Assembly (NCBI RefSeq): GCF_057098645.1 | Contig: NZ_CM169472.1 | DNA length: 64,000 nucleotides | Strand: one strand, 5' to 3' | In this document: positions 29,704 to 50,012 of the stretch, in pieces | Layout: each line of letters starts with the position of its first letter | How positions within the stretch are numbered: the first letter of the stretch is position 1 | Position numbers and translations under genes: made by a program | The notes under the pieces: model-generated | Databases searched by the model: none | What the model was told of the DNA's origin: nothing | Seen by the model: only the letters and a program-made list of their open reading frames with translations

Positions 29704-29899
29704 GACCAAAAACCTCTTTGCGTCACATTTTTACAACAATTATTACAGAAGAGATTAATGCCATTGGAATGAAGAGAGTAACGAATGGCTAAACCGAATG
29801 ACGAAAAATTCTGGAAAACAGCACGCAATTTCGTGAAGTGATTATTTTCGTCCCTAAGGAAACCTCATAGGATGCCTGCGGATGCCTGAGACTTTCTGT

Positions 29900-29967
29900 T
29901 TTCAGGCTAACCGGGAATCAGAAAGACGAAGGCCCCGACCGATATTTCTATCAACCGAGGCCAACGA

Positions 29968-29990
<23 letters not shown>
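29900..29990 (-). ncRNA. sokB: Expected position of SokB antisense RNA of the hokB/mokB/sokB type I TA locus (approximate)
   Basis: Inferred only from hok/sok locus architecture (antisense over the mok translation-initiation region); boundaries not determined from sequence. Confidence 0.25.
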
Positions 29991-30175
<185 letters not shown>

Positions 30176-30590: not shown

Positions 30591-30654
30591 CTTCCGATGT
30601 AGACCCGTACTCTTCGCCTGTACCACGGGTCGGTTTTAGTACAGGCGTTTTCTT
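30591..30654 (+). ncRNA. rydC: RydC small regulatory RNA (Hfq-dependent, pseudoknot)
   Basis: CTTCCGATGTAGACCCGT…GGTCGGTTTTAGTACAGGCGTTTTCTT matches the RydC sequence as I recall it; TATAAT -10 element at 30580-30585; location beside cybB as in K-12. Confidence 0.7.
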
Positions 30655-30664
30655 TAAATATCCT

Positions 30665-31195
30665 TCAGGAACGTTTACGCGGCATCATGCGTAGAAGTGT
30701 GTTGTCCTTCCAGAAATAGTGGTGTGCCAGTGCAGCCGCAGCGTGCAACCCGATGACAAAATATCCCAGATTCGCCAGCGTTTCATGCCACGACTTTAAG
30801 CTATCTACCCGTTCGAAATTGGCCTCTGAAGCGTAAGGCATCGTCAAACCAAACGCAAACCACGGGTTGCCCCGGTTATACATCATCACCAAACCAATCA
30901 CTGGCAGCGCAATAAACAGGAGATAAATCACCAAATGTCCCAAATGCGCCAGTCCCGTCATCATCGGTTTCGGCTTAGGTATAATCGGCGGGGTTGGGTA
31001 TTTCAGTCTTAACAAAAGACGAACCACCATCAGCACGAGAATTGAGATGCCACAGGAAACATGAATCATGTTGATGAGCGGCCGATCGCTACGTGGGAAG
31101 AAACCCCGAAACTCCATTGCGCAATACGCTGCGATAACCAGCAAAAAGACCAGCCAGTGAATGCTGATTTGTAACCTTGAGTATTTATTTTCCAT
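30665..31195 (-). CDS. cybB: Cytochrome b561
   Basis: 176 aa from MENKYSRLQISIHWLVF; haem-ligand His residues in TM helices. Confidence 0.9.
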   Translation of the reverse strand: MENKYSRLQISIHWLVFLLVIAAYCAMEFRGFFPRSDRPLINMIHVSCGISILVLMVVRLLLRLKYPTPPIIPKPKPMMTGLAHLGHLVIYLLFIALPVIGLVMMYNRGNPWFAFGLTMPYASEANFERVDSLKSWHETLANLGYFVIGLHAAAALAHHYFWKDNTLLRMMPRKRS

Positions 31196-31383
31196 AACAT
31201 TTCCTGCTTTAACATAATTTTCCGTTAACATAACGGGCTTTTCTCAAAATTTCATTAAATATTGTTCACCCGTTTTCAGTACGTTACGTTTCACTGTAAG
31301 AATGGAGATTGCCCATCCCGCCATCCTGGTCTAAGCCTGGAAAGGATCAATTTTCATCCGAACGTTCCTGACAGGAGAAAACC

Positions 31384-32385
31384 ATGAGTAAAGTTGGTAT
31401 TAACGGTTTTGGTCGTATCGGTCGACTGGTGTTGCGTCGATTACTTGAAGTCAAAAGCAACATAGACGTTGTCGCTATTAATGATCTCACTTCTCCAAAA
31501 ATTCTCGCCTACCTGCTGAAACATGATTCAAACTACGGACCGTTCCCCTGGAGCGTTGATTTTACGGAAGATTCACTTATCGTTAATGGGAAAAGTATCG
31601 CGGTTTACGCCGAAAAAGAGGCTAAAAATATTCCGTGGAAAGCGAAAGGTGCAGAAATCATTGTCGAATGTACTGGCTTTTATACCTCCGCCGAGAAATC
31701 GCAGGCGCATCTTGATGCTGGTGCGAAGAAGGTGTTGATTTCCGCTCCTGCCGGTGAAATGAAAACCATCGTTTATAACGTTAATGACGACACTCTGGAT
31801 GGCAACGACACCATTGTTTCCGTGGCGTCATGCACCACTAACTGCCTTGCGCCGATGGCCAAAGCCTTGCATGACAGTTTCGGGATAGAAGTCGGCACGA
31901 TGACGACCATTCATGCCTATACTGGCACCCAGTCACTGGTGGATGGCCCGCGTGGTAAAGATTTACGTGCTTCACGCGCAGCGGCAGAAAATATCATTCC
32001 CCACACTACGGGCGCGGCAAAAGCCATTGGTCTGGTGATCCCGGAACTGAGCGGCAAACTGAAAGGTCATGCGCAACGCGTGCCGGTGAAAACAGGTTCG
32101 GTCACTGAACTGGTATCGATTCTCGGAAAAAAAGTGACTGCCGAAGAGGTGAATAACGCACTTAAACAAGCAACCACCAATAACGAGTCATTTGGTTATA
32201 CCGATGAAGAAATAGTCTCTTCCGATATCATTGGCAGCCATTTCGGTTCGGTGTTTGATGCCACGCAAACGGAAATTACCGCCGTGGGCGATTTACAACT
32301 GGTGAAAACGGTCGCCTGGTACGATAACGAATATGGCTTCGTCACGCAGCTTATTCGCACCCTCGAAAAATTCGCTAAACTCTGA
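31384..32385 (+). CDS. gapC: Glyceraldehyde-3-phosphate dehydrogenase GapC, intact
   Basis: Uninterrupted 333-aa ORF with NAD-binding [10 protein letters not shown] and catalytic-Cys motif [13 protein letters not shown]. Confidence 0.9.
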
Positions 32386-32393
32386 CGCGCACA

Positions 32394-32415
32394 GGCGGAG
32401 GAAAAAACCTCCGCC
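32394..32415. terminator. Bidirectional terminator between gapC and aldA
   Basis: GGCGGAGG-AAAAAA-CCTCCGCC hairpin followed by T-tract. Confidence 0.65.
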
Positions 32416-32426
32416 TCTTTCACTCA

Positions 32427-33866
32427 TTAAGACTGTAAATAAACCACCTGGGTCTGCAGATATTCATGCAGACCATGTTTACCATCTGCGCCGCCAATAC
32501 CGGATTTACGCCATCCGGCGTGAAAGCCTTGCATAGCTTCGAAGTTTTCACGGTTGATGTAAGTTTCACCAAACTTCAGCCCTTTAATGGCTTTCATCGC
32601 GACGTTCAGATTTTGGGTATAGATTGATGAGGTCAGGCCGTAATCACTGTCATTAGCCATTGAGATAGCATCTTCCAGCGTGTCAAATGCGACAACTGGC
32701 AGCACCGGGCCAAAGGTTTCCTCATGCATAATCGACATTTCCTGGCGAACATCCAGCAGCAATGTCGGCGGATAATAATATCCTTTCCCCTCTACCGCTT
32801 TGCCACCCAATGCCACTCTCGCCCCATCTTCTACTGCGCGCGCTACTTTTTGCTCAACCCTTTCCAGCGCCGCGGCGTTAATCAACGGTCCCATCGCAAT
32901 GTCGTTGCGTTCAGCGGGGTTACCAAATTGAACCGCCTGCAACGTTTCACCCAGCCGATTGACGAACTGATCATAAATGCCTTTCTGTACATAAACACGT
33001 TCTGCACAGTTACACACTTGCCCACTATTAATGACGCGTGAATCAACGATGGCTTTGACTGCCAGTTCAAGATCGGCATCGTCCATTACGATAGCCGGTG
33101 CTTTACCCCCCAGTTCCAGGCACACTTTGGTGATGTTTTTCGCCGCAGTCGCCATAATCTTTTCACCTGCAGAGACGCTGCCTGTCATACTGACCATTGC
33201 GACCTTTGGGTTACCCGCCAGTTCTTGCCCAACGGTTTCACCACGCCCCAGTACAAGGTTAAACACGCCGCGCGGAAGGCCTATTTCATCGACGATTTTG
33301 GCGAATGCAATCGCATTGTTTGGCGTAAATTCACTGGGTTTAATGACAATGGTATTACCAGTCAAAAGAGCGGGAGCCATTTTGCGGGCAATGAGGAAGA
33401 ACGGGAAGTTCCACGGCAGAATGCCGGTAGTCACACCAAGCGCACGTTTAAACAGAAGAATATTTTCTCCTGGACGATCGCTTTGAATAATCTCGCCCTC
33501 GTAACGCCGTGCCCACTCCGCCATGTAATCGATATAGTCGGCAGTAAAAGCCACTTCGACTTCAGCCAGCTGCTGGATCTTGCCCCCTTCTTCAACAATC
33601 AGCGCACTGATTTCACTGGCGCGTTCGCGGATCCCGGCGGAGATTTTGCGCAACCAACTGGCGCGTTCAATAGCAGGCAACGCTTCCCATTCTGGTTGTG
33701 CACGTTCTGCTGCATCGATTGCCTTACGGGCATCCTCGGCCTGACCATCGGGTATGCGGGAAATGACAGCCTCTGTAGCAGGGTTTACCACATCAATCCA
33801 TGCGTCTCCACGCCAGGTAACAAACTGTCCATCGATATACATAGGATGTTGAACGGGTACTGACAT
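32427..33866 (-). CDS. aldA: Lactaldehyde dehydrogenase AldA
   Basis: 479-aa aldehyde dehydrogenase; catalytic Cys region GQVCNCAER. Confidence 0.9.
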   Translation of the reverse strand: MSVPVQHPMYIDGQFVTWRGDAWIDVVNPATEAVISRIPDGQAEDARKAIDAAERAQPEWEALPAIERASWLRKISAGIRERASEISALIVEEGGKIQQLAEVEVAFTADYIDYMAEWARRYEGEIIQSDRPGENILLFKRALGVTTGILPWNFPFFLIARKMAPALLTGNTIVIKPSEFTPNNAIAFAKIVDEIGLPRGVFNLVLGRGETVGQELAGNPKVAMVSMTGSVSAGEKIMATAAKNITKVCLELGGKAPAIVMDDADLELAVKAIVDSRVINSGQVCNCAERVYVQKGIYDQFVNRLGETLQAVQFGNPAERNDIAMGPLINAAALERVEQKVARAVEDGARVALGGKAVEGKGYYYPPTLLLDVRQEMSIMHEETFGPVLPVVAFDTLEDAISMANDSDYGLTSSIYTQNLNVAMKAIKGLKFGETYINRENFEAMQGFHAGWRKSGIGGADGKHGLHEYLQTQVVYLQS

Positions 33867-39896: not shown

Positions 39897-41732
<1,836 letters not shown>

Positions 41733-41736
<4 letters not shown>

Positions 41737-42059
41737 TTTTTCCAGAGGCGGTCGAACTCCGCCTTCGCAAAATAAGCGGAAGCCTGGCGAAGGATATCGT
41801 TACTGCGGCGCAGTTCACGATTTTCACGCTCCAGCTCTTTCAGACGCTGACGTTCAGCGGTGGTGAGCCCTCCATCACCGCCCCCGGTATCCCGCTCATG
41901 CTGGCGAACCCAGACACGCAGAGTCTCCGGCGTACAGCCAATCTTTGGAGCAATGGAACAAATTGTCGCCCATTGTGAGTCATATTCGCCCTGACTTTCC
42001 AGAACCATACGGACTGCCCGTTGACGGACTTCAGGGGAAAAACGAGTATTTTTAGTCAT
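41733..42059 (-). CDS. IS629 transposase OrfA (HTH DNA-binding)
   Basis: 108 aa [19 protein letters not shown]…; A-run GAAAAAATG at the orfA/orfB overlap is a likely -1 frameshift site. Confidence 0.9.
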
Positions 42060-42067
42060 CCTGTTTA

Positions 42068-44273
<2,206 letters not shown>

Positions 44274-48329: not shown

Positions 48330-49190
48330 TTATTCTCGCGAAATACCATCCAACGTAGACAACACTTCCTCAGAAAGATGCAATTTTTCAGCAGCCATAT
48401 TCTCCCGTAAATGCGCTACAGAAGACGTCCCTGGGATCAGCAAAATATTCGGTGAACGTTGTAACAGCCACGCCAGCGCCACCTGCATTGGTGTTGCACC
48501 CAGGCTCGCAGCAACATCGGAAAGCGTGGAAGATTGCAGCGGCGTAAAGCCCCCGAGCGGGAAGAACGGCACATAGGCAATGCCTTCGCGGGCCAAAGCA
48601 TCAATCATTGCGTCATCAGCACGATGAGCAATGTTGTATTCGTTTTGCACACAGACGATTTCGGTAATCTTACGCGCCTCTGCAACCTGCGTCGGTGTGA
48701 CGTTGCTCAGGCCAATATGTTTTACCAGGCCTTGTTGTTGCATCTCTGCCAGCACGGTCAGGCTGGCTTCAATCGATCCTTCCGCCGGGCCATGACCATC
48801 CCCCATCATCACGCGCAGGTTAACCACATCCAGTACGTCCAGGCCGAGATTACGTAGATTATCGTGTACCGCTTTTTGCAGCTCTGCCGGAGAAAAGGCG
48901 GGCAACCAGGAAGCGTCTTCTCCACGCCGCGCACCAATTTTAGTGACAATTGTCAGGTCGTCAGAGTAAGGATAAAGCGCTTCGCGGATAATCTGATTGG
49001 TGACGTGCGGACCATAAAAATCGCTGGTATCAATATGATTGACGCCCAATGCCAGCGCCTCGCGCAGCACGGTAATAGCGACATGGCGATCTCTGGGGGG
49101 GCCGAAAACCCCAGGACCTGCCAGTTGCATCGCGCCATAACCAAGACGGTTAACGGATTTTGTACCGAGAGTAAATGTATTGCTGCTCAT
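48330..49190 (-). CDS. ydbC: Aldo-keto reductase YdbC
   Basis: 286 aa from MSSNTFTLG; AKR fold. Confidence 0.85.
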   Translation of the reverse strand: MSSNTFTLGTKSVNRLGYGAMQLAGPGVFGPPRDRHVAITVLREALALGVNHIDTSDFYGPHVTNQIIREALYPYSDDLTIVTKIGARRGEDASWLPAFSPAELQKAVHDNLRNLGLDVLDVVNLRVMMGDGHGPAEGSIEASLTVLAEMQQQGLVKHIGLSNVTPTQVAEARKITEIVCVQNEYNIAHRADDAMIDALAREGIAYVPFFPLGGFTPLQSSTLSDVAASLGATPMQVALAWLLQRSPNILLIPGTSSVAHLRENMAAEKLHLSEEVLSTLDGISRE

Positions 49191-49421
49191 CGATACAGGT
49201 TGCGGTTTTTTTATTGCCAGATGCGGCGCTTGACGCGTTTTGTTTTGGTGTCTTTCAGGATAACAGAGCAACCCATCCAGTAATCTTGTTTACGCCCTCG
49301 CATTATTTATCTCTATTCATTTCTATACTGATTTTTCTTAATCCGTTTTATTACAGGGCAGGGTGCAGCGTTGCGGTTTAGGTATCACCTGCTAAAAATT
49401 AGAACGTTCAGCATCAGGACG

Positions 49422-50012
49422 TTACTGTTTCGGTCGCAGATTCTCATCAAATACCAGGCGCTGCCGGCCAGGTTCAACTTCCCGCAATGGCTCGACTTGA
49501 TGCAACGTCTGCTTACAGCGTGTCACCAGCACCTGATACTCATGCGTGCCCTGCTTTTTCCATGCCAGTTCCTGCTCACTAAGTTCACGAATCGCTTTGG
49601 CCGGGCTGCCGACAATCAGGTAATTAGCAGGCATTTCTGCTTTGGCTTTCACAAATGCGGATGCGCTAACAATGCTGTTCTCGCCAATCACCGCACCGTC
49701 CATCACTACCGCGTTCATTCCCACTAATGCATTGCGGCGGATAATGCAGCCGTGAAGGATAGCGCTATGACCAATATGTCCATCTTCTTCCACGACAGTA
49801 TCCTGCTCGGGAAAACCGTGCATAACGCAATTATCCTGAATGTTCGCACCATCTTTCACCACGATACGACCAAAATCGCCACGCAAGCTGGCATTTGGCC
49901 CAACGTAAACGCCCTTGCCGAGAATAACATCGCCGATCAATACCGCTGTCGGATGGACAAAGCTCTCTTCTGGCACAACCGGAGTCAGACCATCTATCTG
50001 GTAAATTGGCAT
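49422..50012 (-). CDS. paaY: PaaY, hexapeptide-repeat thioesterase / regulatory protein of phenylacetate catabolism
   Basis: 196-aa gamma-carbonic-anhydrase-like hexapeptide ORF; overlaps paaX 3' end. Confidence 0.85.

Follow-up and report, generated by a model that had tools for sequence, protein, structure and literature searches.

The gapC locus

The stretch of DNA analysed here (the window) comprises 64,000 nucleotides of contig NZ_CM169472.1 from NCBI RefSeq assembly GCF_057098645.1. It carries a gene for a glyceraldehyde-3-phosphate dehydrogenase (GAPDH), gapC, lying between cybB and aldA, with the following features.

30665–31195, minus strand: cybB (cytochrome b561 / superoxide oxidase), the divergent left neighbour of gapC, which defines the conserved locus
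31196–31383, no strand assigned: divergent cybB–gapC intergenic region of 188 bp, the presumed promoter region, with 2 SNPs relative to K-12
31373–31377, plus strand: Shine-Dalgarno sequence AGGAG, 6 nt 5′ of the gapC ATG, read directly from the sequence
31384–32385, plus strand: gapC coding sequence of 333 codons plus TGA, with an ATG start and no internal stops; predicted type I NAD-dependent GAPDH
31498–31500, plus strand: gapC codon 39, AAA (Lys) in the window and a TAA stop in K-12
31585–31587, plus strand: gapC codon 68, AAT (Asn) in the window and GAT (Asp) in K-12 and PDB 7C5F
31828–31845, plus strand: active-site motif SCTTNC of gapC, residues 149–154, including the catalytic Cys150
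32127–32133, plus strand: A7 run in gapC codons 248–250; A6 in K-12, causing a frameshift
32393–32416, no strand assigned: hairpin AGGCGGAGG-AAAAAA-CCTCCGCCT, with a GC-rich 9-bp stem and an A6 loop (fold −18.1 kcal/mol)
32427–33866, minus strand: aldA (aldehyde dehydrogenase A), the convergent right neighbour of gapC

The uninterrupted 333-codon frame and the good ribosome-binding site claimed in the preliminary description are thus both present, and the coding sequence is identical to the ‘gap’ coding sequence (WP_000048684.1) of E. coli O145 RM9872. The gene order cybB–gapC–aldA is the same in the window, RM9872, TOP10 and MG1655, and identifies the gene as the E. coli gapC orthologue. The terminator hairpin that had also been proposed exists as a GC-rich stem-loop beginning 7 nt past the gapC stop codon, between the convergent gapC and aldA genes, although its role is less secure than its structure: the 3′ tail (CTTTCACTC) is T-poor, and the hairpin is therefore missing from the list produced by a consensus terminator scan. 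It is a probable terminator common to gapC and aldA. In the cybB–gapC intergenic region, a sigma-70 consensus scan gave sites no more numerous than in shuffled sequences, and no promoter was mapped. Just upstream of cybB, Rfam searches of 29880–30031 and 30591–30654 detected both sok, the antitoxin RNA of the hokB/sokB module, and the small RNA RydC, an ordinary arrangement that is also found in K-12.

Identity of the gene product

The predicted GapC protein has both motifs attributed to it in the preliminary description, i.e., the catalytic-cysteine motif SCTTNC and an NAD-binding motif, GFGRIGR (residues 8–14), which corresponds to the Rossmann GxGxxG signature. All the catalytic and cofactor-binding residues checked (Cys150, His177, Asp34, Arg11, Ile12, Ser120) are in place; His177 sits about 27 residues past Cys150, and Asp34 is the acidic residue that selects NAD over NADP. 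The protein matched the Pfam domains Gp_dh_N (PF00044; 124.0 bits, cut-off 31.7) and Gp_dh_C (PF02800; 195.1 bits, cut-off 24.4), and exceeded the cut-off of the type I GAPDH equivalog TIGR01534 over residues 3–325 (447.7 bits against 367.2). Its score with the GapA equivalog model PRK15425 was 302.8 bits, below the cut-off of 662, which leaves it outside the GapA family proper. The closest structural match was near-exact: 332 of 333 residues (99.7%) are identical to those of PDB 7C5F, the sole difference being Asn68 in the window protein and Asp68 in 7C5F. A chance open reading frame is excluded because the open 1-kb frame has this level of protein identity to a solved GAPDH. On these grounds the gapC product is very probably a type I phosphorylating, NAD-dependent GAPDH and a paralogue of GapA and Epd, a judgement graded jointly with the rest of the explanation set out below.

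The similarity to other members of the superfamily raises the alternative that GapC has the GAPDH fold but a different main substrate or role, acting as an Epd-like erythrose-4-phosphate dehydrogenase, an arsenate-detoxifying GAPDH, or an aldehyde-handling partner of AldA. E. coli Epd (GapB) has already diverged in this way, gapC adjoins aldA, and there are sub-threshold matches to the models for Epd and for the ArsJ-associated GAPDH. These scores, however, fall far under the respective cut-offs: 280 bits for the Epd model NF010058 (cut-off 539), 277.5 for the Epd model TIGR01532 (530.55) and 306.5 for the ArsJ-associated model NF033735 (450). Nor was an arsJ gene found nearby, the neighbours of gapC being cybB and aldA; and because gapC and aldA are convergent they do not form an operon, which counts against a partnership with AldA. 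Most directly, the near-identical Asp68 enzyme turns over glyceraldehyde 3-phosphate (G3P) efficiently with NAD+: PMC8615399 describes purified E. coli ‘EcGAPDH1’ as NAD+-dependent and as turning over rapidly, with a KM of 0.73 mM for G3P, and reports its crystal structures. In the same account, the C150A mutation abolished activity and H177A nearly abolished it. As the protein with Asp68 has been measured to be active, the biochemical function of a near-identical protein is established by experiment. A main role other than that of a phosphorylating GAPDH is accordingly very unlikely.

Comparison with the K-12 pseudogene

That gapC is a pseudogene in K-12, as the preliminary description had it, is confirmed by the annotation of MG1655, in which gapC (b4493) is a 1001-bp pseudogene, and of TOP10, in which it is flagged ‘frameshifted; internal stop’. 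The alignment with K-12 that was proposed for placing the lesion revealed 12 differences in 1002 nt, two of which are inactivating. The first is an A-to-T change at window position 31498 that converts codon 39 from AAA to TAA; the second shortens the A7 run by one A. The remaining 10 substitutions comprise 2 missense changes (R18G, N68D) and 8 synonymous ones, and repairing both lesions in silico brings back the 333-codon frame. A frameshift or stop in the window gene, or an intact gene in K-12, would contradict the preliminary description; both were looked for by alignment and neither was found.

One of the K-12 lesions lies in a homopolymer, a classic site of sequencing error, so that the intactness of the window gene might be suspected to be an artefact of sequencing or assembly, such as a miscount of the A7 run. 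We consider this extremely unlikely. A 1301-bp query around gapC has 100% identity to RM9872, the 61-nt segment that includes the A7 run is matched exactly in 1427 genomes, and the difference at codon 39 is an independent substitution outside any homopolymer.

Distribution of intact and null alleles

The gapC locus is present in 5417 of 5426 complete E. coli genomes. Alleles were counted with queries built so that any 28-mer seed used by megablast must cross the lesion site. By this measure the codon 39 AAA allele occurs in 3881 of the 5426 genomes and the K-12 stop allele (TAA) in 1155, while the K-12 A6 frameshift allele occurs in 1050; the intact A7 query spanning the second lesion gave no match, which is attributed to low-complexity masking, given the 1427 exact matches of the 61-nt segment, and makes the intact count at that site indirect. 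The stop and frameshift counts differ by about 105 genomes. A stop-only intermediate was sought among three K-12-like full-length haplotypes (D5, KFu015 and TC24) and none was found, all three being fully intact. Exact 61-nt window segments were also tried as allele counters and dropped, being confounded by nearby SNPs (the T at window position 31494 is rare).

The K-12 lesions are thus carried by about 19–21% of the 5426 complete genomes. Smaller samples give a similar picture. A K-12-type gapC length of 1001 bp was present in 12 of 60 genomes taken as an even sample down the ranking, and all 14 genomes sampled with a full-length gene, O157:H7 and uropathogenic strains among them, are annotated as intact, with 95.7% to 100% identity over the gapC region. 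We estimate from these sequences that gapC is intact in roughly 78–80% of sequenced E. coli.

The null alleles are not confined to laboratory strains. About three quarters of the stop-allele carriers listed come from people, pigs, poultry, dogs, flies, sediment or seawater, and in the chicken isolate W409 both K-12 lesions are annotated. More than 1000 genomes, including many natural isolates, carry the K-12 lesions. The lesions are best regarded as a lineage trait older than domestication, rather than as changes acquired in laboratory culture. Other lesions are rare and independent: an IS1-associated truncation removes the 3′ parts of gapC and aldA in SCPM-O-B-7615, and strain ST648 lacks a single base pair at gapC nt 418, although this deletion might be an assembly error. 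Separately, aldA is annotated as a pseudogene in some strains with an intact gapC, through a frameshift in eco-241 and an internal stop in TC24.

Codon 68 and selective constraint

The residue that distinguishes the window protein from 7C5F is a minority polymorphism. The AAT (Asn68) allele was found in 221 of 5426 genomes, and all 10 other intact alleles compared have GAT (Asp68). The exact window protein is nevertheless on record in at least 1000 public contigs, and the 90% identity cluster to which GapC belongs includes a member from Citrobacter freundii. At the position aligned to GapC residue 68, GapA has Asn.

Comparison of 11 intact alleles showed synonymous variation only at 63 codons and amino acid replacement at 7, and pairwise pN/pS is 0.02–0.04 between lineages up to about 4% divergent. 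Purifying selection on the intact gene is strong throughout E. coli, and the pattern of constraint indicates a gene that is probably in use, not a cryptic remnant.

This bears on the possibility that gapC in the window is intact yet physiologically silent, i.e., cryptic and not usefully expressed, with the decay seen in K-12 still to come. Such a state would fit the tolerance of a null allele by roughly 20% of complete genomes, the existence of independent lesions (the IS1-associated truncation and the ST648 deletion), and the failure of any sigma-70 promoter to stand out in the consensus scan. Against it, besides the strong purifying selection, are the good Shine-Dalgarno sequence and evidence that the upstream region is active even in K-12: promoter activity of the gapC region is reported there (PMC2949598), and PMC4447067 records a ChIP-seq peak for sigma-S RNA polymerase in the K-12 gapC_1/cybB intergenic region. 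We therefore regard a silent gene as unlikely and favour a gapC allele that is functional in its host lineage.

Source lineage of the window

The whole window is collinear with the RM9872 genome at 99.97% identity, save for two structural differences. The window, with its intact gapC, is not K-12, and its identity to RM9872 assigns it to an O145:H28-type Shiga-toxin-producing E. coli lineage. The preliminary description had taken the intact gene itself to mark a non-K-12 lineage. The window is indeed not K-12, but the marker is a poor one, for the intact gene is the majority state and the K-12 lesions also occur outside K-12. With only about a fifth of the complete genomes bearing those lesions (19–21%), intact gapC is a weak lineage marker that rules out K-12 and tells little else.

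The allele distances are of some interest in this connection. Between the window gapC and the allele of O157:H7 strain 1130 there are 18 nt differences, against only 9 for the allele of Ecol_517, which is itself just 3 nt from the repaired K-12 sequence. If O145:H28 and O157:H7 are closely related, these distances hint at recombination at the gapC locus.

Other features of the window

The phenylethylamine/phenylacetate catabolic pathway is decaying in the window. A deletion running between the 3′ end of paaF and nt 1058 of paaK (junction 51297–51300) and a stop at codon 60 of feaR (62245–63150) are common to the window and RM9872. A stop at codon 669 of tynA (58178–60451; A at 60184) occurs in the window and not in RM9872; conversely, feaB (stop) and paaC (frameshift) are broken in RM9872 only and are intact in the window. 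In K-12 all these phenylethylamine/phenylacetate genes are intact, the opposite of the gapC case.

Compared with RM9872 and K-12, the window has an inversion of a 175-bp segment (49192–49366) that lies just 1 nt upstream of the start codon of pdxI. No collinear match across this inversion was found among the 5426 complete E. coli genomes, and no inverted repeats flank it. Its right junction falls within the loop of a terminator (hairpin plus T7) downstream of paaY, the folding energy of which is −25.0 kcal/mol in RM9872 and −8.8 kcal/mol in the window. The inversion destroys this terminator and strips pdxI of its conserved leader and an SD-like AGGG. It may be specific to this strain, or it may reflect an assembly artefact or an edit. 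Around it, the spacing between paaY and pdxI is 231 bp in the window (49190–49422), which lacks the ~9-kb K-12 paaY–pdxI stretch (NC_000913 1465062–1474220) containing ynbG together with the autotransporter pseudogene ydbA, which carries insertions of IS2 and IS30.

A complete IS3-family (IS629-type) element of 1310 bp lies inside ynbD at 40804–42113. It carries orfA (41733–42059, minus strand) and orfB (40846–41736, minus strand), an ALIL frameshift pseudoknot (Rfam, 120 bits) and terminal repeats that start TGAACCGCCCCGGG, and is bordered by a 3-bp target duplication, GAC. The ynbD site is empty in the O145 genomes listed, and the insertion is therefore strain-specific.

Proposed role of GapC

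The explanation that we favour, with a probability of about 0.9, is that the window gene is a functional gapC allele of the O145:H28 lineage encoding an accessory type I GAPDH, which the K-12 clade carries in a form made null by two lesions. GapC would oxidise glyceraldehyde 3-phosphate to 1,3-bisphosphoglycerate in an NAD-dependent reaction via a thioacyl intermediate on Cys150, with His177 acting as the base. To judge from the literature, it may serve as an accessory isoenzyme beside GapA that is useful outside the host, and the gene may be transcribed from the cybB–gapC intergenic region chiefly in stationary phase, under sigma-S, at low temperature or in fresh water; transcription would end at the hairpin shared with aldA. 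K-12 and a large related clade would have lost GapC through the codon 39 nonsense mutation and the 1-bp deletion in the A7 run.

PMC2949598, citing Espinosa-Urgel and Kolter (1998), describes the gene as intact in isolates from the environment but mutated in laboratory strains, and as expressed preferentially in fresh water; an adaptive reading in terms of aquatic survival is repeated in PMC1796617. The physiological role rests on that one 1998 study, as cited in later papers. That gapC is intact outside K-12 has been known since the 1990s (PMC2949598, PMC8615399). What is new here, a small refinement, is that the K-12 gapC lesions are a lineage trait present in more than 1000 genomes.

A bolder step would be to view intact and null gapC as a natural, ecologically meaningful polymorphism and not a by-product of laboratory domestication, with GapC having a role in life outside the host (in the cold or in fresh water) that one large clade has given up. 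We put this forward tentatively, and rate it as possible but doubtful; if it is true, the description in print of laboratory strains as ones that ‘accumulate mutations’ in gapC would need to be corrected. In either event it is K-12 that is atypical at gapC: most E. coli, the O145:H28-type pathogen included, would keep a second working GAPDH. Caution is thus in order when metabolic models of K-12 or data on the essentiality of gapA are carried over to wild or pathogenic strains. Beyond correct annotation, the significance of the finding is slight.

Relationship to known enzymes

The closest known counterpart of the window protein is the crystallised E. coli GapC/‘EcGAPDH1’ (PDB 7C5F and sister entries; PMC8615399), which is of equal length and has the same Cys150, His177 and NAD-contact residues; it differs in having Asp in place of Asn at residue 68. 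The accessible text of PMC8615399 gives neither the gene name gapC nor a strain for EcGAPDH1. The orthologous locus in K-12 is the gapC pseudogene (b4493; formerly gapC_1/gapC_2, b1417/b1416), likewise situated between cybB and aldA; it has the K39-to-stop change, the A7-to-A6 frameshift and the missense change R18G, whereas the window allele is open throughout. The K-12 housekeeping enzyme GapA (b1779) shares with the window GapC its fold, domains, SCTTNC and GFGRIGR motifs and reaction, but is only 48% identical and is encoded at another locus. More distant still, at 41% identity, is the erythrose-4-phosphate dehydrogenase Epd (GapB, b2927) of E. coli, which has the superfamily and the active-site cysteine motif in common with the window GapC and whose gene lies in the epd–pgk–fbaA operon.
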